From the IMG/VR virus record IMGVR_UViG_3300050336_000035, positions 32,001 to 96,000 of that record: a stretch of 64,000 nt of DNA. One strand, 5' to 3'. The stretch is from a virus (Duplodnaviria; Caudoviricetes). Positions 12,850 to 54,989 of this stretch are shown here, piece by piece. Both the position numbers and the translations under genes were made by a program. The notes beneath the pieces were generated by a model. The model was not told the DNA's origin and did not search any database. It saw only the letters and a program-made list of their open reading frames with translations. Position 1 is the first letter of the stretch. Every line of letters begins with the position of its first letter.

Positions 12850-12948
12850 AATTATGTTATGAAAGAACAGATTTATTCAAATATTTCTATTTGATTTGTG
12901 GTATCTCTAATTATTTAGGCTTAACCATAAGCATATAAATCAATGCTT
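12850..12948 (-). ncRNA. omegaRNA-like guide RNA L1 (scaffold ~12870-12948, putative guide reading leftward)
   Basis: Inverted homolog of the RNA downstream of tnpB; three stems; own consensus promoter. Confidence 0.75.
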
Positions 12949-12954
12949 AATGCT

Positions 12955-12984
12955 ATTATAAATTCTTAATATAATGATTGTCAA
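12955..12984 (-). promoter_or_regulatory. sigmaA promoter for ncRNA L1
   Basis: Minus strand TTGACA-N18-TATAAT. Confidence 0.8.
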
Positions 12985-13068
12985 CTATTTGCTGAAATTT
13001 TTACCATCTTTAATAAAAGTACATAATACAGTATAATAGAAGCAATTAATTAGAGAGGTGGTAAATTA

Positions 13069-13269
13069 ATGGCAGTTAAAAATAGATTAAAAGAAATTAT
13101 AGATGAGCGAGGTATAAAGCAAGTCTGGCTTGCTGAACAAGTAGGTATATCATATAAAACACTATCTAATATAATAGGTGGAAGATATAACACTAGTTTA
13201 GATGTAGCATTAAAAATAGCAGATGTTTTAAACGTAAAGGTCGATGATATTTTTTATTTAGAAAAATAA
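13069..13269 (+). CDS. XRE/Cro HTH regulator
   Basis: KNRLKEIIDERGIKQVWLAEQVGIS...SLDVALKIADVL. Confidence 0.9.
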   Translation: MAVKNRLKEIIDERGIKQVWLAEQVGISYKTLSNIIGGRYNTSLDVALKIADVLNVKVDDIFYLEK

Positions 13270-13304
13270 TGCTTAAATTTAGATATTATTTTTCATAAAA
13301 ACTC

Positions 13305-13352
13305 TTGACATGCAAGATAATTTCCTTTATACTTAAATTACAGGTTGCAACC
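13305..13352 (+). promoter_or_regulatory. sigmaA promoter followed by GGTTGCAACC palindrome
   Basis: TTGACA-N17-TATACT; palindrome at 13343-13352, conserved in module 2. Confidence 0.75.
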
Positions 13353-13381
13353 AAGTAGTTTAGTGTAAAGGAGAATTACAT

Positions 13382-13789
13382 ATGTATGATGAGTTACTAG
13401 AACAATTGAAAGTATTAGATAAATTTAATAAAGGCAAAGTATCAATCACCTTAAACTTTGGTAATTCCTGTATAACCTACACTTATATGAATTTCAGTTG
13501 GGATGAAGATGCAGGATACTTAGTCATGGGAGATAATGACACAATTCACGAAGATGCTACTAGTATAGATTTTGATGATATTTTAGAAGTTGATGAGATG
13601 AATGATGATTTAGTTGAATTGACACTGGAGAATGGAAAAGTAGTTATTATATTAGATACCGAATATTCACTATGCTTTAAATGCGGAGAAAAAAGACCTG
13701 TGTTCTATATGAGGGCTTATGGTGAAAATTCAGAAGAATATGATATAAGAGTATGTCAGGATTGTTTTAATAAGATGATTGAATGTTAA
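13382..13789 (+). CDS. Acidic beta-rich protein with C-terminal Zn ribbon
   Basis: CFKC...CQDC; positional counterpart of 47981-48448. Confidence 0.75.
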   Translation: MYDELLEQLKVLDKFNKGKVSITLNFGNSCITYTYMNFSWDEDAGYLVMGDNDTIHEDATSIDFDDILEVDEMNDDLVELTLENGKVVIILDTEYSLCFKCGEKRPVFYMRAYGENSEEYDIRVCQDCFNKMIEC

Positions 13790-13814
13790 ATATGAACGGA
13801 AAGGAGGAGTAATT

Positions 13815-15215
13815 ATGACTGTTGAAATGAGAACTATTAAATTTTATTCTAATAATAAGACAACTAAAGAAGATTTTGATAAAGGTATTAAATTTTTAAC
13901 TGAATGCCAGGAAGTTCAAAATAAGTTATTGGAATATTATTGGAACAATTTCAGTTTAGTAATTGATTCTAAAAGTTGGATTGATTTCTATAACACAAGA
14001 GTTATGATTACTGCTCCTTCTATTAAGTTTCAACACTATCAACAAATACTTCATATGGTTTATGGTACACTTAAATCTTTACAGGAGAATATTATTCAGA
14101 AAATTCACTTTAAATTTGAAGATAAATTACAACAACGTATTTATAACTATTGTAGTAAGTTTATTTTTGATTGGAATAGGCTTGAAATATATGTTAATAA
14201 ACAAGTTAAAGAGTATAAAAAGAAAGATAAGAAATACTATGAGTTTTTATTAGAAGTTAAAAACGTAATAGATAATGAACAATCTTTTTTGATGTTACAG
14301 CAGGATATAGAAAATAAGTTTTCGGAAATTAAAAATAAAATAAATTTACCACAAAAGAAAACTAAACAGATAATTGCAACTACTCTTCATACAATAGACA
14401 TTGAAAAATATGATAATTATTGGATATTTATAATTGATACTAATCATTTTATAAGTAAAAAGAAAATGGATAAATTCAAAATAGTAATTGATATATCAGA
14501 TTATCATAGAAATGTACTTGACAAATATTGTTTAAAGAATACTTTTACTATAAAACTAAATAATTATGGCAGGATTGAAATTACAGGAGCGTACGAAAAA
14601 GAAATAGATTATCCAGAATCTAACCCTAAATATATTATTGGAATTGATATAGGCTTAAAGAATTTAATTGTATCGTCTGATGGTGAATTTATTGAACAAA
14701 ATAAAACTATTGTAGAGAAAACTCAAAAGCTAATTAAAAATCAAGCTAATAGACAAAGCTTAGAAGCTCATATGAAAAAGAAACTTGATGATGAAAATTT
14801 TACTTTACCTGATAAAAACTATATGAAGAAACAAAATAAGCTTAGTAGATTCGTACAATGTGATAATCGTTACAAGGTTAAACAATTTCTAAAAGGTAGG
14901 GAAGACACTCATATCATTATGGAAGATTTACATTTAAATGATGCTAAGACATATAGCAAAGAAGTAAATTATATGCTGAGAAGAATGAGGATACAAGGCA
15001 TTAAGAATGATTTATTGAAGTACACAAAAGAGATGGGGATTAAAACAACACAAATAAATCCTAGATATACAAGTATTGATTGTCCAATTTGCGGAAATAG
15101 GGATAAATTAAATAGGCAGACACAGGAAACATTCAAATGCACTAAATGTGGTCATACAGATAATGCAGACCATAATGCTAGTGTGAATATTGAAAATAGG
15201 TATTTAAAGGTATAA
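13815..15215 (+). CDS. tnpB: TnpB/Cas12f-like RNA-guided nuclease, RuvC triad intact
   Basis: IGIDIG, IIMEDL, CPIC...CTKC, NADHNASVNI; start at 13815 chosen from the SD and the paralog. Confidence 0.9.
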   Translation: MTVEMRTIKFYSNNKTTKEDFDKGIKFLTECQEVQNKLLEYYWNNFSLVIDSKSWIDFYNTRVMITAPSIKFQHYQQILHMVYGTLKSLQENIIQKIHFKFEDKLQQRIYNYCSKFIFDWNRLEIYVNKQVKEYKKKDKKYYEFLLEVKNVIDNEQSFLMLQQDIENKFSEIKNKINLPQKKTKQIIATTLHTIDIEKYDNYWIFIIDTNHFISKKKMDKFKIVIDISDYHRNVLDKYCLKNTFTIKLNNYGRIEITGAYEKEIDYPESNPKYIIGIDIGLKNLIVSSDGEFIEQNKTIVEKTQKLIKNQANRQSLEAHMKKKLDDENFTLPDKNYMKKQNKLSRFVQCDNRYKVKQFLKGREDTHIIMEDLHLNDAKTYSKEVNYMLRRMRIQGIKNDLLKYTKEMGIKTTQINPRYTSIDCPICGNRDKLNRQTQETFKCTKCGHTDNADHNASVNIENRYLKV

Positions 15216-15226
15216 AATATATAAAA

Positions 15227-15322
15227 AGGCTTTGATTTAATGCCTGTGGTTAAGCGTACTTTAGTACAGATACCATTAATTGCTTTAAAAAGTGAATGAA
15301 TCAGTAGTTTTATTTCGTTAAA
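15227..15322 (+). ncRNA. omegaRNA-like guide RNA R1 (scaffold ~15227-15302)
   Basis: AGGC..GCCT, GGTTAAGCGTACTTTAGTACAGATACC and terminal hairpin, conserved with 50105-50184. Confidence 0.75.
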
Positions 15323-18171: not shown

Positions 18172-21100
18172 ATGTTAGTTACTAATAATATAAAAGTTGG
18201 AGACAAAATGTATTTTAAAACAAGTAGAAATATAGGAACAATAAAAAATATTGAAATAGGAGAATGGGAGTCTCCTCATGGTTCATGTAGCATAATAGAA
18301 TATATTAAAAATTTTGAAGTAGATATAGATGGCAAAATCTTTAATATTAATCCAGATGATAGAGATATAATGTTTAAAAAAGATTTGGAATATGAAATAT
18401 CTAAACTTGAAAAATATAAAAAGATACTTGAAAAAATGTGACAAAAGACGGAATTTATCATGAAATTTACAAAGGTTTATGATATACTATTTCTATCTCA
18501 ATTATCAAGGAGTTAGTCCTATGCCAAAATGTCAATTTTGCGGTAAGCAAATTAATTGGATAAAAACTAATACAGGTAAGTCAACTCCTGTGGAATTAGA
18601 GCCTATTAATGTTGTTGAAAATAAAAATGGTGATACTGTTATAGTTACTGATAAAGGACAAGTCATTAGAGGTAATATTGTTGGTGACGCTAATGAAGAA
18701 GGATATTATATAGGCTATGAAAGTCATATAGTTAAATCACCTTATTGTAAGAAACCTGATTAATGATTTTTAATTAAATAATTAAATACAAAAATAATTT
18801 ATTTTATATATTGACATACTTATTATAAGGTGCTATACTATAGATGTGGTAAGAAATTACAGATTGGAGTGTTAAATATGACTTATGATGAAGTTGAAAA
18901 GACAATTAATATCCTTAGAAATAAAGGAATGTTAATAGATATTAATCTTCCAATTAAAACATTAAAGTTGATAGCAGAAGCATATGATATTGGGATTGAA
19001 AGTATTAAAAAAGGAAATGATGGATATATTGATTTCGGTGGCGTAATTGGTATCAAACCAATTAAAATAGTTAATAAAAATGATAAATTTGGATATGTTG
19101 AAGTTAAAATAGAAGAGTGAATTTATTAACAAAATATGTGAGGTTTATTATGGATAATGAAATTAATATATATGATATAAAAGATTCTGCTGTATTTAAA
19201 TATAGACAACATGCAATCAAAAATGCAAATATTGATATTGACACTTTACAACGAAAATTAACAGCATTGATATTAAACGCCCAATTTAAAAAACAACTTA
19301 CAACTACTAGATGGTTATATAGATTTGGAGCATTCCAAATGTATACCAATGAAGATATTTTTGAAATAGAAGACATAAGTTGGATTGATGATACTCATGA
19401 AGGTTATCGTATAACAAATGAAATGCAAGCTAATTTACGGAATACATATATTCAATTAGGATTAAATAGTAAAGGAACAAGTATGTACGAAAATGTTATA
19501 AATAAGTAAATCTATCACAAGTTCGAGGTGATTAAGTATGAAAAAATACAAAACTATTACAATAGAAAAATATAATTGGTCTGGTTCTGAAATTCTCATA
19601 GTAGATTTTCAAACTAAAGAAGAAAAGGTATTAAAGGATACAGATTTAAAATCAGTTATAAATGATTTAAATCAAGATGGTTACGTTTTATGTGGTATTA
19701 ATGGTAGAGAATATTATATGACTAAAGAAATTAGCGGATAGAAGTGCAGTTTGGTCACAAAGTATAATTATTTGGAGGATAATATTATGAAGTATAAAAT
19801 TTGGGATAAAGTTAATAAAGAATATCTTGATTTAACTAAATATTGCGTCAATGGTTTTGGAAATGTAATAACTACAAATGGACTAGTAATGATTAATCAG
19901 AACGATTTTGAAATTCAAGTTGATTTAAGAAGTTGATACCAATCGAAGATTTTGTCATGAGATAGGAGTTATATATGGATAATAATTTTATGAACCAATA
20001 TTCAATATATCGTCCAGATTATAAACCTTGGAGTTTAGTTTATATCTATAATGATGGAAGAAAAGTTGCTCAATATAGGGCAAGTTTAGAAGATATTGAA
20101 GAAGGTAAAAAGGCAAGACCATATGGAATACAGAAAATTAAAGTAAGAAAACCATGGGAATGTGAGGTTTGTGAAAAGCAAATTCAAAAAGGTGAAGAAG
20201 CAATTGTATTTACAGGTAGATATGAGTATAAAACTTATGCTCATGTAAATTGCATTAATTTTTATTAAGATAAAACTTTGATTTTATTTAACTATAGAGG
20301 AAAAATATGAAACCTGAAAAATGTTTAGAAGATGGTTGTAATAGTAAATCAGGTATGAAAGGTTATTGTGACAAACATTACATTAGACTTACAACTATAA
20401 TTAATAATCTTACTGATAGTGAAGTGGAATTAAAAAACAAATTAATTCATAAGCTTAATATACTTGATGAAATGTATCCTAAAAAAGAAAAGAAACCAAT
20501 ACTACATAATATAAGAGAAAAATATTCTGCATTTTGTTGTGTAGATGGATGTAATAGACCCCATCATTCAAAAGGATATTGCGAAAGACATTCAAGGCAA
20601 ATTGAAAAATATGGGAGATTAACTCCTGAACTTGAAAGTAAAACATTAAGACCATTGAAATTATGCAGTGTAGAAGGTTGTAATAATATACATTTAGCAA
20701 AAGGTTATTGCAATAAGCACTATATAGAATTTAGGAGATATGGGAAAATATTATAAATTACTCATTTTATAGGGTATAATCAGTCTAATGTGTACCAAAT
20801 GAAAGGAAATGATATTGTGAGTACTGTTATAGAATGGAAAAGAATTGAAGCAGGAGAATATTGGTCAAAGGATGATAGATTTCATATCTTAAAGACTTGG
20901 GATAGAATATATAATTCACATTGGGAATTATATGACAGTATAAGTAAACAAGATTATCCTTGTAATAGCTTAAAAGAATGTAAACGGCGAGCAGAATTAA
21001 TAGTAGAACAAGCATGATTCATAGATGTAGTTATTTCGCCATTTGAATATACTGTGAATATTATAATTATTAATATAATAGGAGTGTGATATTATAATGA

Positions 21101-28559: not shown

Positions 28560-29900
28560 ATGTACAAAGAGAAGCAAGAACAACTGTATTCAAGGATTAA
28601 TAGTATTATAGCTAATACTGATTATCGAATATTTAAAGAAGCTGTAGGAACTGAGTTGAGAAAAAGAGGTCTAGATTCTAGCATCATAATATTAGCATCT
28701 GAAATTATCATGAAAAATGCTAAAGTTGAGCAATTAGTTAATGAAGAAGATAATGATATAAAATTATTATTTTTCTTTGCTGATGCTCTTAATAAGGCTT
28801 TAAGTGATAATGAAGGTGCTATTATTATTTTAGAAAATTATTTTTTAAAAAGTGAAATAGAAGAATTAACGGATTATACAATTAAAGAAGGTAAAGAAAG
28901 TATTTTTCCACTTACAATTTATGATGTTACTCAGTTTAATGACCACCATTGGGAAGGGAGTATAACTGCTCAATATCAAGATAAGTGCAATAGTTATAGA
29001 GTACCTTATTATAATCCTAATACACAGCGTAACCCCAAGAGAACAAAGAAGGGTGATAAAATAAATGTTGACCCTAAAAAAGTACTTGCTATTAGAGATG
29101 AATTATTAAGTGGAGAGTACGAAACAGATTCAATTATCTGGAATATTTTAAAAACTGGAGATGAAAAGTTTACTTATAATCCTAAAAATAGAACATTAAC
29201 AATATTTGAAGGAAGTATTATTAATATAGTTGATGGACAACACCGAAAAGAAGCTAATTCTGCTGCTATAGCTATTAATCCTAATTTGGATTACAAATGG
29301 CCTCTTAGTATTTTTAATGTTAGTGAGATTAAGGCACATAGTATAATGGTTCAGAAAAACAAACAGACGAAAATGCCTGAAGAATGGATTCAAACAAAAG
29401 ATTATAGTAGATATGAAAATGATGTTATTAGTAAGATGAAAGATGAAAAATCTAACCTTTTTAAAATTATGGGTGAAGATGAAAAACAAATTGCCAACAA
29501 TCAATCTTTAGTTAAAAAATCTAATATAGCATTAGCTATTAAAGAAATTTATCAAGAAGAAATATCTGATAATGATGACAGAAGACAACTAGCTAGATGG
29601 TTGTCAGAATTCTTTGATTATATGATAAAACTATATTCTTATGAATTTATTGAGGAGTCTTTAAAAGTAAAAGAAGTTAGTTTTATAAATTGGAAAAATA
29701 TGTTTTTTGGCTATATAGCGTTATCGAGAGCTTTGAGAAATAAAGATAATTGGCGTGAAGTATTTAAAGAAAAAATGTCTTCTATAGATTTTAGTAATAC
29801 AAATCCATTATGGCAAACTTTTGGAATATTAAATACAAAAGATGCCAATGCAACTTTAAGGAAACATTTGTATAATTTATTTAAGGAAGGTGTTGAATAA
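28560..29900 (+). CDS. DGQHR/DndB-like protein, SPbeta YopQ (SroE)-like
   Basis: YNPNTQR, IVDGQHRK; coupled to the integrase-fold gene. Confidence 0.7.
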   Translation: MYKEKQEQLYSRINSIIANTDYRIFKEAVGTELRKRGLDSSIIILASEIIMKNAKVEQLVNEEDNDIKLLFFFADALNKALSDNEGAIIILENYFLKSEIEELTDYTIKEGKESIFPLTIYDVTQFNDHHWEGSITAQYQDKCNSYRVPYYNPNTQRNPKRTKKGDKINVDPKKVLAIRDELLSGEYETDSIIWNILKTGDEKFTYNPKNRTLTIFEGSIINIVDGQHRKEANSAAIAINPNLDYKWPLSIFNVSEIKAHSIMVQKNKQTKMPEEWIQTKDYSRYENDVISKMKDEKSNLFKIMGEDEKQIANNQSLVKKSNIALAIKEIYQEEISDNDDRRQLARWLSEFFDYMIKLYSYEFIEESLKVKEVSFINWKNMFFGYIALSRALRNKDNWREVFKEKMSSIDFSNTNPLWQTFGILNTKDANATLRKHLYNLFKEGVE

Positions 29901-30937
29901 TGAGTTTTGAATATGTTAAATTTTCAAATATAGATGAATTAGTTTTTCAATATAACCAAGAATTGAAGAAAGAGTATTTAAGACAAAAACCATTAGAGAC
30001 AGCAAGAAGTGATTATAAAACTATGGTATCTGTTGATGAATATGAAACATTATTAAAAAAACCTGTATATGATTTTTCGCTAGTAGAACGAAATGAATTG
30101 ATGATGATGAAATTCAGAAATACTACTGTTCATGCAGTTCTTTCGACAGCTTCAAAGATTAAAGGATATATAGATTATTGTGTTAGAGCAGGTGAAGTAC
30201 CTCACAATCAAAATATTTTTGACACTTTTATTAAATCTGAAGCTATGAAATTTGTAAGTAAACATGCTACTGAATTTAGATATATAACTCCAGAACGGTT
30301 AAATGAATATATTCATATTTTAAAAAATTGGCAAGACAAATGTCTAATAAGATTAATAAATGAAGGGGTAAGGGGAAGAACGGTTAAAGGTGGAACATTA
30401 GAAGAAATTATTAATCTACAAATTAAACCTAATAGTGAAGACACAAAAAATTGTATTTTAAGATTAGTAGGTAATGATGGTTCTTTTCGAGAACTTCAAG
30501 TAACTCGTGAAGTAATGGATTTAGTTTTAATGACATATCAGTCAGAAGAATATTTACCAAATAACGGAATTGATGATAAATCTGTAGAAAAGAAAAAAGG
30601 CGCTAAAAAATATACAATTAATAGATATAAAAATTATGTATTTTGTGCTTTAGGAAATAGTAAATTTGGAACATTAAATCCAATAACAATAAATGCTAGA
30701 CTTCAAAAAATTCAGGAATATTGTGATAATCAATTTATTACTGTCTATAATTTATATATGAGTGGAATGATAACTAAAGCAATAGAAATTTACAAAGAAA
30801 AAGGTGAATTAACTTCACAAGATTATATAAATATTTGTTTTAAGTATAAATATGGTGGAGATACGCCTGAAAAATATATGTCTAAATTGAAATATGAAGT
30901 AGAAACCTATTTAAAAGGTGGTATTCAAGATGCTTGA
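29900..30937 (+). CDS. Tyrosine-recombinase-fold lysogeny repressor, YopR (MrpR/SroF)-like
   Basis: SAM-like N-terminus, EGVRG...EEIINL; HxxR replaced by YNLYMSGM, so probably inactive as a recombinase. Confidence 0.7.
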   Translation: MSFEYVKFSNIDELVFQYNQELKKEYLRQKPLETARSDYKTMVSVDEYETLLKKPVYDFSLVERNELMMMKFRNTTVHAVLSTASKIKGYIDYCVRAGEVPHNQNIFDTFIKSEAMKFVSKHATEFRYITPERLNEYIHILKNWQDKCLIRLINEGVRGRTVKGGTLEEIINLQIKPNSEDTKNCILRLVGNDGSFRELQVTREVMDLVLMTYQSEEYLPNNGIDDKSVEKKKGAKKYTINRYKNYVFCALGNSKFGTLNPITINARLQKIQEYCDNQFITVYNLYMSGMITKAIEIYKEKGELTSQDYINICFKYKYGGDTPEKYMSKLKYEVETYLKGGIQDA

Positions 30938-32451: not shown

Positions 32452-32913
32452 TGGTATAAAAATCCCTCCTTTTGTTAAAAAAATTATTATATATATTATT
32501 CGTAGAAAGCTAAATTTTATGGGTATATAATTCTTTGTATTATTAATTAATTGTTATTAAAATAATTTTTTATTTATATTGACATATTGTTATAATGGTG
32601 ATAAGATATATATGTAAGATAAAGGTAAATAAAAAAAGTGAATAGAGTTAACCTTTGGTAATGTTTTTGAAAGGAATTTAAAATGAGAGATGAATTATAT
32701 GCTTTTAGATGTAAAGAATGCGATTTCATCTATCTTGAACCGTATAATATTTCAGATAGATTTAGTAAATATCCTAGTTGTCCAGATTGCGGTTGTAAAG
32801 ATGTAGAAATATATGAAGGCGAGTTGTCAGAAGATTTACAAGAATTTGCTAGTCAATATGCTGATGAATTAGAAAATGAAGAAGATGAGTAGTTTGAATT
32901 AAAATTGTGTTTC

Positions 32914-33045
32914 ATTAAGAAAGGGAAATTAATCAATGCAGATTTAAATGGAGCGTATCAGATAATAAAGAAAGTAATACCAAATGCTTTTGCTGATGGT
33001 ATAGAGGGTGCAGGTTTACATCCGATTAGAGTTAATTTAATCTAA
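32914..33045 (+). pseudogene. tnpB: C-terminal remnant of a TnpB with the 3' part of its omegaRNA
   Basis: GKLINADLNGAYQIIKKVIPNAFADGIEGAGLHPIRVNLI*; starts at dyad 32898 and is followed by hairpin plus dyad 33069. Confidence 0.85.
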
Positions 33046-33109
33046 TAAATCACTTTGTAAAAAAGTGAATGAATCAGCGATTTGATGATATATAAGAAAG
33101 GAGAAGCTT

Positions 33110-46496: not shown

Positions 46497-47312
46497 GTGA
46501 TTACTATTTCGAAAATAGTAAATGATAAATATTATACTTCGCCAGAATTGGCAGAATACATAGTTAATAAAACAAAAGAAGTAATAGGTGTAGAAAACAT
46601 TTCAGAATATTTAGAATCATCAGCAGGGGCAGGAGTGTTTTTAGATTATCTTGATAAACCTTACATAGCTTATGATATTGAGCCTGAAGATGATAGAATT
46701 ATTAAACAAGATTTTCTTAGTCTAAATTTAGATTACAAAAAGAATAGATGCATTATAGGAAATCCACCTTATGGAGAAAAGAATGTTTTATCAGTTCAAT
46801 TCTTTAAAAAAGCTTTAGAGTTAGGTGACTATATAGTATTTATACTTCCTATTAGTCAATATAAAAATAATTATCAAATGTTTGAATTTGATATGATTTA
46901 TAGTGAAGACTTAGGATTACAACATTATACCGATAGAGATTTACAATGTTGCTTGAATATCTATAAAAGACCTAAAAATGGTTTAAATAAGAAACCGAAC
47001 TACAAGCTTAAAGACGTTGAAATAAAAGAAAATAGGCGAACAGGACAACAAATATCCGATATTAAAGATTATGATGTGGGCATTTGTTCTTTTGGAAGTG
47101 GAATTATAGGTAGGCAACCTCAATATCAAGGACAATATGCTAAAGAATTTTATTTTAAAATACATAATGATAACTTGAAAAATAGAATAATTGAATTAAT
47201 ATCAACTACCGACTGGGAATTGGAAGTTTGTAACGGAATAAGTGGTCAGACTAATTTAGCTCAATGGCAAGTATATAAATACATAAAAGAACAAATTCCA
47301 GAAATTCAGTAA
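46497..47312 (+). CDS. Amino-DNA methyltransferase (orphan)
   Basis: DKYYTS, LESSAGAGVF (SAM binding), IIGNPPYG. Confidence 0.85.
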   Translation: MITISKIVNDKYYTSPELAEYIVNKTKEVIGVENISEYLESSAGAGVFLDYLDKPYIAYDIEPEDDRIIKQDFLSLNLDYKKNRCIIGNPPYGEKNVLSVQFFKKALELGDYIVFILPISQYKNNYQMFEFDMIYSEDLGLQHYTDRDLQCCLNIYKRPKNGLNKKPNYKLKDVEIKENRRTGQQISDIKDYDVGICSFGSGIIGRQPQYQGQYAKEFYFKIHNDNLKNRIIELISTTDWELEVCNGISGQTNLAQWQVYKYIKEQIPEIQ

Positions 47313-47387
47313 GTTTGTCACATAATTATAATATGATAATCGAAGTATACGAGAGATTGTAAGAGTAAACAGAAGTTATAGTTTACC

Positions 47388-47487
47388 AATTTATGAATGA
47401 AAACGCTGATTCATTCACTTTTTAAAAGTGATTTATGGTATCTGAACTAATGTCCGCTTAACCAACAAGCATATTGAATCAATGCTT
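47388..47487 (-). ncRNA. omegaRNA-like guide RNA L2 (scaffold ~47408-47487)
   Basis: Homologous to L1/R1/R2 with compensatory changes. Confidence 0.75.
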
Positions 47488-47494
47488 AATTAGA

Positions 47495-47523
47495 ATTATA
47501 ATAGTAATTGTAATAATTGTCAA
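47495..47523 (-). promoter_or_regulatory. sigmaA promoter for ncRNA L2
   Basis: Minus strand TTGACA-N17-TATAAT. Confidence 0.8.
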
Positions 47524-47662
47524 TACTTTTAGTATTTTATCGTTATTAATATAAATTATGTTGACATTGTAGTTCAATTAATGTATACTAATAATTGTAA
47601 GATAACATCTCTTCCCCGTTACTACATAATATTATATAATAGCTTATGGGAGAGTGATATAT

Positions 47663-47866
47663 ATGGTTAAGAATAGGTTAAAAGAAATATTAGATGACAG
47701 AGGAATTAAACAAAAATGGTTAGCTGAAAAAGCAAATGTTAAAGAAAACACATTATCAGGTATCATAAATAATAAAACCGTAACAAGTGTAGATATAGCA
47801 ATAAGAATTGCAAAAGTTTTAGAAATGCCTGTTGAAGATATATTTCAAGACCAAGATTCATTTTAA
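47663..47866 (+). CDS. XRE/Cro HTH regulator (paralog of 13069)
   Basis: KNRLKEILDDRGIKQKWLAEK; start could be GTG 47654. Confidence 0.9.
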   Translation: MVKNRLKEILDDRGIKQKWLAEKANVKENTLSGIINNKTVTSVDIAIRIAKVLEMPVEDIFQDQDSF

Positions 47867-47980
47867 CAGAATTATTATTCATTATTCTGAATTTTTATAT
47901 TGACATATTGAATTTATTCCCTTATAATAAAAATGTAAGTTAAAGGTTGCAACCACACTTACCAAATTTATTATAAGGGA

Positions 47981-48448
47981 GTGTCTAATATGAAATTAGA
48001 AAAATTGAATCAGTTGGGTAAAGAATGTAGTTTAAGGAAATTATCTCAATTCTTAGGTATGAGGGTTGAAGTAAGTATTAATACTCATACTCATAATAAC
48101 AATTTAATGTGTACATATTTCTATGAAAGTTTCGATTTTGATGCAGGTGAATTTATACTATGTCTATTTGATAAGAAAGATGAAACATTAAATACTAGGA
48201 TTAATAATGAATTAATTTTAGAAGTAAAAAATCTAACTGAAGATTTATATGATGATGTAATTCATATCTATACAAATGATTTTATCTTATCCATTACAAC
48301 ATTAGAACAGAAACTTATCCTTCCTAAATGCAATCATTGTGGCAAAGAAATTGAGCATAATGAATACTGGTTATCTGGAGCTTATGGTGATTTGAGATTA
48401 TGCGAAGATTGCTCTTATCCATTATATCCAATCAGTGAAGAAAATTAA
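47981..48448 (+). CDS. Beta-rich protein with C-terminal Zn ribbon
   Basis: CNHC...CEDC; preceded by TTGACA-N17-TATAAT and GGTTGCAACC (47945). Confidence 0.75.
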   Translation: MSNMKLEKLNQLGKECSLRKLSQFLGMRVEVSINTHTHNNNLMCTYFYESFDFDAGEFILCLFDKKDETLNTRINNELILEVKNLTEDLYDDVIHIYTNDFILSITTLEQKLILPKCNHCGKEIEHNEYWLSGAYGDLRLCEDCSYPLYPISEEN

Positions 48449-48475
48449 AAATATGAGTAGAAAGGAGGAGTAATC

Positions 48476-49879
48476 ATGGCTATGGAAATGAGAGCAATCA
48501 AATTTTATTCCAATAATAAAACTACAACTGAAGATTTTAATCGAGGCATTAACTTTTTAACCGAATGCCAAGAAGTTGAAAATAAGCTATTAGAATATTA
48601 CTGGACTAACTTTAATGAAGTTATTAGTGTTAGAACTTGGATTGATTTCTATAGTAAAAGAATTATGATTACTTCTCCTTCTACTAAATTTCAGCATTAT
48701 ATGCAAATACTTCACATGGTTTATATGCAATTAAAAAGTTTAGAAGAAAAAACTAAGCAAAAGGTTCACTTTAAATTTGAAGATAAAATGCAACAACGCA
48801 TTTACAATTACTGTAGTAAGTTTGTTTTTGACTGGGATAGACTTGAAAAGTACATTAATAAACAAGTTAAAGAATATAAAAAGAAAGATAAGAAATATTA
48901 TGATTTCTTAATGGAAGTAAAAAATATAATAGACAATGACTTATACTTCTTAACTTTACAACAAGATATTGAAAATAAGTTTTGGGAGTTAAAAAACAAA
49001 ATAAATCTACCTAGAAAGAAGTCTAAACAAATTTGGGCTACTACGTTTCATACCGTAGATATTGAGAAGTATGAGGGTTATTGGATTTTTGTTATTGATA
49101 CTAATAAGTTTATTACTAAACGTAAAATGGAAAATTTCAGAATAGTAGTAGATATATCAGATTATCATAATAGTATATTAGATAATTATAATTTAAATAA
49201 CACTTTTACTATTAAATTTAATAATTATGATAGATTTGAAATTATTGGTGTATATGAAAAAGAAATTATTTATCCTGAACCTAAACCTACTAAAACAATT
49301 GGTATTGATATTGGCTTAAAGAATTTAATTGTATCTTCCGATGGTGATTATATTGAGCAGAATAAAACAATATTAAAGAAAGCTCAAAAATTAATTAAGA
49401 ATCAAGCAAATAGACAAAGTTTAGAAGCACATATGAAAAAGAAATTAGATAACGAAAATTATACTCTACCTGATAAAAATTATATGAAGAAGCAGAACAA
49501 ACTAAGTAGATTTGTTCAATGTGATAATCGTTATAAAGTTAAACAATTTCTCAAAGGTAAAGAAGATACCCATATCATTATGGAAGACTTACAATTAAAT
49601 GATGCTAAGACTTATAGTAAAGAAGTAAATTATATGCTTAGAAGAATGAAGATTCAAGGGGTTAAAAATGATATTTTAAAGTATACAAAAGAAATGGGTA
49701 TAAAGACAACACAAGTAAATCCAAGATATACAAGTATTGATTGCCCTATCTGTGGAAATAGAGACAAACAAAATAGACAAACACAAGAATTATTTAAATG
49801 TACTAAATGTAGTCATACAGATAATGCAGACCATAATGCTAGTGTTAATATTGAAAATAGATATTTGAAAGCACAATGA
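48476..49879 (+). CDS. tnpB: TnpB/Cas12f-like RNA-guided nuclease, RuvC triad intact
   Basis: IGIDIG, IIMEDL, CPIC...CTKC, NADHNASVNI; close paralog of 13815-15215. Confidence 0.9.
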   Translation: MAMEMRAIKFYSNNKTTTEDFNRGINFLTECQEVENKLLEYYWTNFNEVISVRTWIDFYSKRIMITSPSTKFQHYMQILHMVYMQLKSLEEKTKQKVHFKFEDKMQQRIYNYCSKFVFDWDRLEKYINKQVKEYKKKDKKYYDFLMEVKNIIDNDLYFLTLQQDIENKFWELKNKINLPRKKSKQIWATTFHTVDIEKYEGYWIFVIDTNKFITKRKMENFRIVVDISDYHNSILDNYNLNNTFTIKFNNYDRFEIIGVYEKEIIYPEPKPTKTIGIDIGLKNLIVSSDGDYIEQNKTILKKAQKLIKNQANRQSLEAHMKKKLDNENYTLPDKNYMKKQNKLSRFVQCDNRYKVKQFLKGKEDTHIIMEDLQLNDAKTYSKEVNYMLRRMKIQGVKNDILKYTKEMGIKTTQVNPRYTSIDCPICGNRDKQNRQTQELFKCTKCSHTDNADHNASVNIENRYLKAQ

Positions 49880-49888
49880 GGATATGTT

Positions 49889-50086
49889 ATGAATGATGGA
49901 TATTATGAAACAATTGGATTTTTAGGACAAAAATTTACTTGGTATTTTTCAAATGATTCATGTGTTGTAGTTAATGAAGCCACTGAAGAAGAATGCGAGT
50001 TTCCTATTTCAAAAATTAGTATTACAAATGATACAATAAAAATTAAAGGAAGCCATTCTTTTACAATTTTACCTTTGGATAACTAA
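49889..50086 (+). CDS. Small hypothetical protein inside module 2
   Basis: 65-aa ORF with SD between tnpB and ncRNA R2. Confidence 0.65.
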   Translation: MNDGYYETIGFLGQKFTWYFSNDSCVVVNEATEEECEFPISKISITNDTIKIKGSHSFTILPLDN

Positions 50087-50104
50087 GTGAATATTTCAAT
50101 AAAA

Positions 50105-50204
50105 AGGCATTTATTTATATGCCTGTAGGTTAAGCGTACTTTAGTACAGACACCACAAATCACTTTATAATAAGTGAATAAATAACGTGTTTTATTTACT
50201 TTTA
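50105..50204 (+). ncRNA. omegaRNA-like guide RNA R2 (scaffold ~50105-50184)
   Basis: AGGCAT/ATGCCT, GTAC/GTAC and CACTT/AAGTG stems. Confidence 0.75.
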
Positions 50205-50232
50205 GTTATTAATATAATATGGAGGTTAATTT

Positions 50233-50994
50233 TTGGCACATAGAAAATATAAAGATACTCATAGAATAAATGAACAAGGTTTAGAAGAAAAACAGTGTAG
50301 AGATTGTAATGAATGGCTTTTAATGAATAATACATACTTTAACACAGTAAATGGGAAGAAAGATAAATTAAATGACAGATGTAAAATATGCCAAGACATT
50401 TATCAAAGAATCAATTATTTAAAAAATGCCGACAAACAAAGAGAAAAAGCTAAAAAGAGAAGACTTGAAAAACTACCTGAAATTACTGAATATTTTTTGC
50501 AGTATTATAAAAACAATAGAGAGTCTATGAAAGCAAAAAATAAACAGTATAAAAAGGAACATTCTGAATATTATAAAGAAAATAGCAGAAAATTTAGACA
50601 GTCTGAACGTGGTCGTGAAAGATGTAAAATTTATAACAGGAAACATAGAATCAAAAAACACCAAATAACTAATAAGGAATGGGAAAATTGTAAAAAGTAT
50701 TTTGATTACAAATGTTGTTATTGTGGGCTTCCATTATCAGAACATTATTATACCAGAAAAGGTATTACAAAACTAGGAGATTTTCACAAGGAACATATTA
50801 TAGATGATGGGAAGAATGATTTAAGTAATTGTGTTCCTAGCTGTCAATCTTGTAATAGTAGTAAAAGAGAGTACTCTTTACATACATGGTATAACCCTCA
50901 AAATCCTTTTTATGATAAAGATAGATATCATAAATTGTATTTATGGATTAGATATGATTATAAAAAATACATAAAAAAGAAAAAGATAAAATAG
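50233..50994 (+). CDS. HNH endonuclease
   Basis: CCYCG...HKEHII...NCVPSCQSCNSSK. Confidence 0.9.
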   Translation: MAHRKYKDTHRINEQGLEEKQCRDCNEWLLMNNTYFNTVNGKKDKLNDRCKICQDIYQRINYLKNADKQREKAKKRRLEKLPEITEYFLQYYKNNRESMKAKNKQYKKEHSEYYKENSRKFRQSERGRERCKIYNRKHRIKKHQITNKEWENCKKYFDYKCCYCGLPLSEHYYTRKGITKLGDFHKEHIIDDGKNDLSNCVPSCQSCNSSKREYSLHTWYNPQNPFYDKDRYHKLYLWIRYDYKKYIKKKKIK

Positions 50995-53039: not shown

Positions 53040-54989
53040 ATGCAAACAAAAATTGAAAGAATACAGAATTTAGTAAAAGAGCTTAATACATATAGAAATG
53101 AATACTATAATCTGAATAAACCAAGCATATCTGACTTAGAGTATGACACAAAGTTTGACGAACTTTCTAAGTTAGAGAAGGAACATGATTACATATTATC
53201 AGATAGCCCTACACAGAGCGTAGGATATGAAGTTAAATCAAAACTAAATAAGAGACAACATCCTACTCCATTAAAGTCACTTGACAAAACAAAGTCTATA
53301 GATGAATTAAATAAGTGGAAAAATGGTAAAGATACAATTCTGATGATAAAGGCAGATGGTCTTACAGTTGAATTAGATTATGAGAATGGACAGTTTATAA
53401 ATGGTTACACTAGGGGTAACGGAGAAATAGGAGAAGAAATAGGACACAATTGTAGAGTTTTTAAAAATATTCCTTTAACAATCCCATTCAAAGGAAAACT
53501 GCGTGTCTCAGGAGAAGCTATAATTCATTGGAATGACTTTAATAATATAAATTCTAAACTAACTGATGATGAAAAATATGCCACTCCAAGAAACTTAGTG
53601 AGTGGTTCAGTTAGACAATTAGATAGCAAAATATGTTCTCAGAGAAATGTTTATTTTTATGCTTTTAATATTTTAGAATGTGAAGATATGTTATATGATT
53701 CAAAATTTGAAAGATTTAATGGATTGTATAGATTAGGCTTTACAGTAATACCAACTATAAATTTATGGAATAATTCAATTACTGAAAATAATATAAATGA
53801 ATTAAAGAATCAAGCTAACAAATTAGGAATACCAATAGACGGGTTAGTAGCTAGTTATGACTCAGTTAAATATTCAAATAGTCTTCCTATAACATCACAT
53901 CATCCTTTACACAGTTTGGCGTTCAAATTTTACGATGAAACAGAAGAAACTATATTAAGAGATGTAGAATGGAATACTACAAGAAGTGGTCAGATTAATC
54001 CTACAGCTATATTTGATACAGTAATAATTGATGGTACAGAAGTAAGTAGAGCATCACTACATAATTTATCTATAATAGAAGGTTTACAATTAGATATAGG
54101 AAATCATATTTTAGTATCTAAGAGAAATCTCATAATCCCTCATGTAGAAGATAATCTTGATAGAGATGAGAATATCTTATCTTATCCTTCCGTATGTCCT
54201 TCATGTGGTGGTAAAACTAAAATAAGAAATACTGGAACAGCAGACTTCTTATTTTGTACTAATGATGATTGTTCAGCAAAGTTACTTAATAAGTTTGTAA
54301 ACTTCGTTAAGCGTGATGCAATGAATATTGAAGGATTATCTGAAGCTACACTTGAAAAATTTATAAACAAGGGTTGGCTACAGAAGTTTGATGATATTTA
54401 CTATCTTGATGAACATAAATCTGAAATAGTTAGAATGGAAGGATTTGGTTTAAAATCATATAATAATCTGATAGAGTCGATTGAAAAGTCAAAAAATGTT
54501 AAATTAGAAAACTTTCTTACAGCACTAGGTATTGAAGGTGTAGGACTATCTACAGCAAAGTTGTTAACAAAGAAATTTAAGACTATTGATAATTTACTTG
54601 GTGCAAGTAGAGCCGAATTTATGAACATTGATGGTATTGGTGAAATAACTGCTAATTCAATATATGAATATAGGCTATTACATATTGGAACAATTCAATG
54701 TTTGAGAGATAAAGTTAATATTATTGAAGAAGAAAAGAAGGAAATAATAAGTTCAGACTCACCATTCGCAGGGAAAAAGATTTACGGTACTGGTACATTT
54801 GCTAACTATAAAAAGGAAGAACTTAAAACATTACTTGAGAGTTTAGGTGCTGAATTTGCAAATGGTTATGCAAAGAGTCTTGATTACTTGATAGTAGGTA
54901 GTTTAAAGGGAAGTAGTAAGGAAGATAAGGCAAAGAAAGATGGAATATCAATATTAACTGAGGATAAATTTATTAAAATGTTAAAATAA
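53040..54989 (+). CDS. ligA: NAD+-dependent DNA ligase
   Basis: KADG adenylation motif, TRGNG, PRN...GS.RQLD, Zn finger, HhH, BRCT. Confidence 0.95.
   Translation: MQTKIERIQNLVKELNTYRNEYYNLNKPSISDLEYDTKFDELSKLEKEHDYILSDSPTQSVGYEVKSKLNKRQHPTPLKSLDKTKSIDELNKWKNGKDTILMIKADGLTVELDYENGQFINGYTRGNGEIGEEIGHNCRVFKNIPLTIPFKGKLRVSGEAIIHWNDFNNINSKLTDDEKYATPRNLVSGSVRQLDSKICSQRNVYFYAFNILECEDMLYDSKFERFNGLYRLGFTVIPTINLWNNSITENNINELKNQANKLGIPIDGLVASYDSVKYSNSLPITSHHPLHSLAFKFYDETEETILRDVEWNTTRSGQINPTAIFDTVIIDGTEVSRASLHNLSIIEGLQLDIGNHILVSKRNLIIPHVEDNLDRDENILSYPSVCPSCGGKTKIRNTGTADFLFCTNDDCSAKLLNKFVNFVKRDAMNIEGLSEATLEKFINKGWLQKFDDIYYLDEHKSEIVRMEGFGLKSYNNLIESIEKSKNVKLENFLTALGIEGVGLSTAKLLTKKFKTIDNLLGASRAEFMNIDGIGEITANSIYEYRLLHIGTIQCLRDKVNIIEEEKKEIISSDSPFAGKKIYGTGTFANYKKEELKTLLESLGAEFANGYAKSLDYLIVGSLKGSSKEDKAKKDGISILTEDKFIKMLK

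Follow-up and report, generated by a model that had tools for sequence, protein, structure and literature searches.

TnpB, the ancestor of Cas12, is usually seen as a helper of IS200/IS605 elements, with one guide RNA at one end; what, then, is the role of a phage TnpB unit that lies in a genome without a matching transposase and has an RNA gene at each of its two ends? The question is raised by module 2 (M2), which spans 47397-50195 of the window (the whole 64,000-nt stretch of DNA analysed here, corresponding to bases 32001-96000 of an IMG/VR virus record of 167,493 bp, which is complete and has direct terminal repeats). With slightly more belief than doubt, we read M2 as a self-contained, transposase-free TnpB cassette, placed in an accessory region of the phage, whose two flank-reading omega RNAs serve homing or allele replacement, by a mechanism proposed below. 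It looks like a selfish, RNA-guided unit that could mark its two borders. Underlying this reading are the anatomy of the cassette, the covariation and conservation of both RNAs, the promoters, purifying selection on the nuclease, ends that fall within short dyads and an allele of the same site that carries other cargo.

Cassette anatomy and the paired RNA scaffolds

From left to right, M2 consists of the L scaffold (minus strand), genes for a helix-turn-helix (HTH) regulator, a Zn-ribbon protein and TnpB (467 aa), an open reading frame (orf) of 65 aa and the R scaffold (plus strand). The genes, scaffolds and dyads named in a preliminary description of the locus were all found in the places assigned to them, and the extra orf does separate tnpB from an intact right-hand scaffold (R2), as that description had it. 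Its guide starts required correction: the flank-derived part begins one base earlier, directly after GAATRAAT. The features of M2, in window coordinates, are:

47311-47396, plus strand: non-coding leader left of the cassette, with a TTGTCA / extended -10 promoter-like element facing the cassette
47389-47408, minus strand: putative L guide, consisting of the first 20 nt of flank beyond the scaffold (predicted function)
47397-47414, no strand: left boundary dyad, ATGAAA-acgctg-ATTCAT; outer arm and core as in phage fragment G001
47409-47490, minus strand: L omega-RNA-like scaffold, 81 nt, four helices, directed outward (leftward); covariance model R1, E=4e-15
47495-47523, minus strand: L RNA promoter, TTGACA-17-TATAAT (12/12), with only a few nt between it and the scaffold
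47561-47589, plus strand: promoter P1 of the regulator gene, 11/12 match to the sigma-70 consensus
47664-47866, plus strand: Cro/C1-type HTH regulator; Pfam HTH_3, E=2.4e-10; PHROG transcriptional repressor, E=6e-14
47900-47928, plus strand: promoter P2 of the Zn-ribbon/tnpB operon, TTGACA-17-TATAAT, 12/12 match to the consensus
47918-47980, no strand: 63-bp palindrome centred on GGTTGCAACC, inverted repeat 14/14
47990-48448, plus strand: Zn-ribbon protein, 152 aa, with C-terminal CxxC...CxxC, outside known families
48476-49879, plus strand: TnpB/Cas12f-like nuclease, 467 aa; Pfam Cas12f1-like_TNB, E=6e-15; OrfB_IS605, E=2.6e-7
49889-50086, plus strand: extra 65-aa orf with its own ribosome-binding site (RBS), between tnpB and the R scaffold
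50102-50183, plus strand: R omega-RNA scaffold in the canonical place 3′ of tnpB; covariance model R1, E=3e-15
50178-50195, no strand: right boundary dyad, ATAAAT-aacgtg-TTTTAT; core and outer arm as in G001 and in locus L021
50184-50203, plus strand: putative R guide, flank after the scaffold end (predicted function)

The final 6 nt of the L scaffold form the inner arm of the left dyad. Inverted arms at 47425-47474 and 50117-50166 are 86% complementary and are extended by a second arm pair. The start of the regulator gene is placed at ATG 47664, which follows an RBS; an earlier GTG, at 47654, appears in the orf list.

The two 81-nt M2 scaffolds are inverted copies of one RNA with four helices. 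In an 81-nt alignment of eight scaffold copies from four modules, standard pairs occupy 98.5% of the pair cells of the derived four-helix structure (17 pairs), as against 21-47% when the partners are slid; 10 of the 17 base pairs have changes on both sides (compensatory), and none of 500 shuffled controls reached any of the pairing measures. G-U pairs are found only on the strand that is read outward and would give A-C mismatches on the opposite strand, which indicates that the outward strand is the functional one. Across the phage genome the covariance model identified six module ends and one truncated relic, and nothing else. The scaffolds had no counterpart in Rfam when the window was searched at the gathering score and seven related loci at E values up to 0.05.

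Six L copies are preceded by sigma-70 promoters that match the consensus at 10-12 of 12 positions and the seventh (L091) by TTGACA-17-TATAAT; in all seven the -10 box ends 2-5 nt ahead of the scaffold or its first hairpin. Promoter matches are weaker at the R copies, and the R RNA is probably made from the tnpB transcript. Scaffold identity is 74-96% across copies, while synonymous sites of tnpB are saturated (dS >1). The L copy is 74% identical to the R copy of its own module and 74% identical to other R copies (R versus R, 84%), and this equal distance within and between modules implies that the L/R duplication is old and that both copies have been retained by selection. From this arrangement we infer that the RNAs are expressed, that they extend 3′ into the flank and that both are loaded on TnpB.

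The TnpB clade to which M2 belongs is rare and sharply bounded (~55 clusters, 42-85% identity), and those members that were looked up lie mostly on large phage-like contigs. Of 16 clade loci checked, 14 have an R scaffold 3′ of tnpB; none was detected beside tnpB in L027 and L030. Seven dual-RNA cassettes were found, each at a different site: three in this phage genome (M2; module 1, M1, at window ~12859-15313; module 3, M3, beyond the window) and those of L004, L019, L020 and L091. All seven, which carry the regulator and the Zn-ribbon gene, have an L copy. No L copy was detected in any of nine TnpB-only loci (L021, L022, L023/L024, L025, L027, L029, L030, L092 and L093); these relatives (43-69% identity) have the canonical 3′ scaffold only. 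Confinement of the L copy to the three-gene cassettes suggests that the two-RNA architecture was derived in one subclade. M1 lacks the 65-aa orf but otherwise follows the plan of M2, and the TnpBs of the two are 80% identical. As first described, the common architecture is combined with unrelated flanks and unrelated 6-nt cores (ACGCTG and AACGTG in M2; GAACAG and CAGTAG in M1).

Among 22 clade members, TnpB shows no variation at D278, E370 and D452 or at C423, C426, C442 and C445; the RuvC D-E-D triad is therefore complete, and the loss of catalytic residues that marks TldR proteins is not seen. The zinc-finger TNB domain is recognised by PF07282 (E=6e-15), and Foldseek matched the AlphaFold model (pLDDT 91) to AsCas12f (E=1e-16), ISFba1 TnpB (E=4e-13) and ISDra2 TnpB (E=7e-11), with OsCas12f also matched. 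In sequence comparison, a Cas12f was the closest chain of solved structure (E=2e-14). Comparison of tnpB paralogs gave dN/dS values of 0.06-0.13 at dS >1. Judged from these sequence data, TnpB appears to be intact and under purifying selection, and nuclease activity is predicted. Among cultured-phage proteins only generic TnpBs matched, at no more than 31.5% identity.

Boundary dyads and the alternative-cargo allele

The preliminary description had proposed comparing the ends of homologous elements with the dyads. At ~20 of 21 element ends, from 15 loci, the end stops in a dyad: after the scaffold end AATRAAT come six bases that are unrelated between ends, then a TTTYAT-like arm. Exceptions are L91, clearly, and R25, partly. 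Homology between copies is lost at the scaffold end and does not extend beyond the dyads, and outside the outer arm the flanks of homologous elements are unrelated.

Strict dyads (ATRAAW-N6-WTTYAT) occur 51 times in the genome, versus 7.6 +/- 3.1 times in shuffles (6.7-fold), with clusters at 27-53, 67-85 and 100-123 kb, and 61% of the genome's dyads are located at ends of plus-strand orfs, where only 6% of random positions fall. Nine other contigs with the same TnpB clade contain 23 dyads versus 4.0 expected (~6-fold enrichment). The cassettes belong to phage genomes in which one common palindrome divides up the accessory genes. The only zero-mismatch dyads in the M1 and M2 regions are the four module ends, two of them in the M2 region (47200-50400). 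The truncated scaffold relic also ends at a dyad.

At window 32930-33086 a relic of another element, starting directly after a separate dyad at 32898, consists of the C-terminal piece of a different, more typical TnpB orf followed by the last scaffold stem, the GAATGAAT end and a dyad. A repeated element of ~45 nt, present in two copies (G000:C1:103180-103250 and 122560-122640), ends in GTGAATRRAA, followed by a dyad.

G001, a 65-kb phage fragment, contains a counterpart of the M2 site. Its own cassette, the closest relative (85% TnpB identity), lies elsewhere. At the counterpart of the M2 site, left and right dyads are present with identical cores and outer arms, the right dyad being followed by an HNH gene (~80% identical), and between both dyads lie ~1.7 kb of unrelated small genes. 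Breakpoints between the present genome (G000) and G001 coincide exactly with the boundary of core and inner arm on both sides. The only segment of the left flank common to the two is the leader (47311-47396; G001:18209-18312, 72-76% identity), and genes upstream of it are unrelated. A metagenome scan with the left junction returned only two short contigs, both identical to the G001 allele at the junction. As the same cores and outer flanks enclose other cargo in G001, the cores belong to the locus and not to the cassette, and M2 counts as one of several cargoes that alternate between two dyads already in place. At the sequence level, the G001 allele is direct comparative evidence that cassettes are exchanged at dyads.

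The 20-nt putative guides that follow the left and right M2 scaffolds (L2 and R2) are each unique in their own genome. In G001, L2 has a 16/16 match and R2 a 14/16 match, the first 13 positions contiguous, both beside the alternative cargo. The L2 16-mer had 49 matches in IMG/VR, of which only that in G001 is homologous, the others being attributable to chance. No empty M2 site was found; the alternative-cargo allele was the only other form. The R side of L021 (TnpB-only, 69% identity) has the same core and ~50 nt of flank as M2. For the flanks of M1, M3, M4, M19 and M20 there was no counterpart in the genomes compared, so that the allelic evidence comes from M2, and a protein search with the HNH flank gave a distant paralog only. 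An IS605-type TnpB of G001 (L006:967-2097, 34% identity) has conventional hairpin ends, unrelated to dyads, and was set aside.

These comparisons modify the idea, put forward in the preliminary description, that the module moves between dyad sites and is reprogrammed by each new flank. Exchange at dyads is consistent with the G001 allele, but M2 occupies the interval between two dyads that are already present in a relative and is not an insertion into a single one. Flanks are indeed unrelated from site to site, but guides are also inherited with the site, R2 corresponding to the L021 core and the start of its flank. The suggested search of phage genomes with the guides had, for L2, its one homologous match in G001, where the site holds alternative cargo and is not empty.

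Accessory genes and the phage genome

The Zn-ribbon protein had neither a Pfam nor a PHROG family match. It is present in 7/7 dual cassettes, in two subtypes only ~30% identical, both of which are shared across phages; by sequence comparison, this suggests fast evolution or swapping of the gene. The Zn-ribbon proteins of M2 (47990-48448) and M1 (13382-13789) are only ~30% identical, versus 80% for their TnpBs. Relatives fall into 24 rare clusters, all hypothetical, and structural look-alikes in the Atlas (score only 0.76; TM ~0.5 to PH-like / Veg-like small folds) are leads only. The 65-aa orf likewise matched neither a Pfam nor a PHROG family and is confined to M2, being missing from M1, M3, M4, L019, L020 and L091.

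The regulator slot is itself exchangeable: in M3 it is filled by a 53-aa Arc/CopG-like ribbon-helix-helix gene (L003:698-859), versus the HTH gene of M1 and M2. The GGTTGCAACC-centred palindrome, which overlaps the P2 -10 box and the RBS of the Zn-ribbon gene, was identified in four modules (47918-47980; 13300-13375; L003:955-1020; L004:3465-3530). It shows apparent compensatory changes and is kept where the Arc/CopG-like gene replaces the HTH regulator.

The phage genome has a G+C content of ~26%, with nearly all genes on the plus strand, and no cultured phage matched at the DNA level. The NAD-dependent DNA ligase (window 53040-54989) shares 49% identity with its counterpart in Clostridium phage c-st, the nearest cultured relative among the genes checked. 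The host is probably a low-GC Firmicute, although this is a lead only. A Y1 transposase (Y1_Tnp) and a serine recombinase (Resolvase) were sought in the complete genome without a match. Nor was a CRISPR array found: no 18-mer occurs at least three times at 40-100 nt spacing genome-wide, and a local repeat search yielded none.

Four Phage_integrase-domain orfs (G000:C1:128612-129109, 19857-20405, 151624-152169 and 110712-110978) and one MrpR-like recombinase-fold orf (window 30281-30817) are candidates to act on the dyads. On two different phage contigs, genes for DndB-like and MrpR-like recombinase proteins directly adjoin a TnpB element (L020:426-2707 and L092:5770-8226). A DndB-like and MrpR-like gene pair is also found at window 28560-30937.

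Proposed homing, rival exchange at dyads and known systems

The L RNA gene is an ancient inverted duplicate of the canonical R one, furnished with a strong promoter of its own, and each scaffold ends in the inner arm of its 18-bp border dyad. In the proposed course of events, transcription would continue into the core and the neighbouring DNA, giving each RNA a 3′ extension specific to its own junction. During co-infection, TnpB with the two RNAs would cut related phage genomes that have the same junctions and other cargo, as in G001. Cuts at both borders would remove the foreign cargo and leave ends that could be repaired from the cassette-bearing genome, so that the cassette would be copied in by gap repair or the rival genome destroyed. 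A second guide would be sensible because cassette arrays have no empty sites and heterologous cargo would block repair. A homing-type maintenance role of TnpB has been demonstrated (PMC10055086) and reviewed (PMC13565253), and in intronless homing by phage endonucleases a nuclease encoded amid conserved phage DNA cleaves the allele of a relative during co-infection, and its gene is then copied into that allele (reviewed in PMC13565253). A more specific form of this proposal is tentative, and we think it possible rather than probable: the clade would be adapted to genomes of dyad-bounded cassettes and achieve allele replacement by a double cut, at both borders of the rival, with the dyad arm as target-adjacent motif (TAM) and an 81-nt scaffold that suffices away from the tnpB coding sequence.

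Several points weigh against homing. Dyads appear at most gene ends, also in other phages with TnpB of the same clade, and thus exist independently of TnpB. There is a single allelic comparison, and the left flank shares only ~100 bp with G001, at 72-76% identity, which is poor homology for recombinational repair. No consistent TAM rule was found that separates self from target among the dyad arms: the arm beside the L2 target in G001 is ATAAAT, a sequence that the cassettes themselves carry as inner arm at R2, L1 and other ends, so that simple TAM-based self-avoidance is not evident. Discrimination by the last inner-arm base (T in most scaffolds, A in most generic dyads) was considered and fails at L4, L19, R29 and the arm beside the G001 L2 target. 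Breakpoints at the boundary of core and inner arm fit site-specific exchange at least as well as homing. Such exchange is the chief rival: recombination at the dyads, for example by a phage tyrosine recombinase, would move the cassette as it would any other of the genome, with TnpB and the R RNA as cargo and the L copy serving regulation, retention or nothing related to mobility. The 6.7-fold enrichment of dyads, their position at gene ends genome-wide and their enrichment in other phages of the group all agree with a recombinase, as do the sharpness of the G000/G001 breakpoints on both sides, the four Phage_integrase-domain orfs and the MrpR-like one, and the relic that ends at a dyad. However, the 6-nt cores vary by site while classical tyrosine recombinases need matching overlaps, no recombinase is linked to the cassettes, and a promoter-driven 81-nt L RNA, kept in 7/7 cassettes despite saturated synonymous sites, would be left unexplained. 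We regard this alternative as rather unlikely.

The two RNAs might instead direct TnpB to its own genome or transcripts, as a roadblock or insulator at the borders or as a TldR-like regulator of neighbouring genes. The L RNA is antisense to the promoter-like leader facing the cassette, the guides match the cassette's own junctions perfectly, and the elaborate self-regulation (two regulator types, three promoters and the leader palindrome) would suit such a function, which the invariant RuvC triad of the clade, unlike that of nuclease-dead TldR, and the harm that self-cutting would cause render improbable. That the inverted ends are DNA structures, either protein-bound terminal inverted repeats or single-stranded hairpins used by a transposase acting in trans, and not RNA genes, would be in keeping with inverted repeats flanking a mobile-looking unit, and DNA hairpins would also tolerate G-T pairs. 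Yet covariation preserves pairing and not sequence in four helices over 81 nt, the scaffold also accompanies tnpB, on its 3′ side, in relatives without an L copy, every L copy has a precisely placed promoter and the genome contains neither a Y1 nor a serine transposase, so that this explanation is very improbable.

Literature searches found TnpB homing and phage homing endonucleases, and did not find a two-guide phage TnpB cassette. If the RNAs act as guides, M2 would represent a natural two-guide TnpB system. Homing or allele replacement by M2, if true, would make it the first case of an RNA-guided nuclease playing the part of the free-standing homing endonucleases of phages, here at both borders of an allele, and would bring RNA-guided nucleases into the process by which phage gene cassettes are shuffled. 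Of practical interest are a 467-aa nuclease and its compact scaffold of 81 nt, which can be separated from the coding sequence and has a promoter of its own.

Like TnpB of IS200/IS605 elements with its omega RNA (reRNA; ISDra2, ISFba1), the M2 protein has the RuvC D-E-D triad, a zinc-finger TNB domain and the TnpB/Cas12f fold of WED, REC and RuvC; in both systems a structured RNA is encoded at the 3′ end of the nuclease gene, and because its scaffold does not reach beyond the element, the guide is flank sequence. M2 differs in adding, at its other end, a second, inverted omega-RNA gene with its own promoter, in its short scaffold (81 nt), no part of which overlaps the coding sequence, and in the added regulator and Zn-ribbon genes. 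Unlike IS200/IS605 and IS607 elements it has no TnpA and no asymmetric LE/RE, both ends being the same inverted element. Its borders are dyads common to the other cassettes of the phage, and the known allele of the cassette carries other cargo in place of an empty donor joint. Cas12f (type V-F; AsCas12f, OsCas12f) gives the best sequence and structure matches and is of similar protein size, but the phage genome lacks a CRISPR array and the putative guides are single and fixed in position.

With the free-standing homing endonucleases of T4-like phages (Seg, Mob; intronless homing / marker exclusion) a functional analogy is proposed, without homology; in M2, target recognition would be by RNA and at two sites. 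Integron attC sites, Xer-dependent pdif modules and T4 PeSL cassettes resemble the present system in that units of one to a few genes are bounded by inverted-arm sites and relatives carry alternative cargo. In contrast to these, the M2 site has only a 6-6-6 layout whose core is free, it has no linked integrase dedicated to it, and an RNA-guided nuclease comes with one class of cassette, its RNAs ending within the sites themselves.

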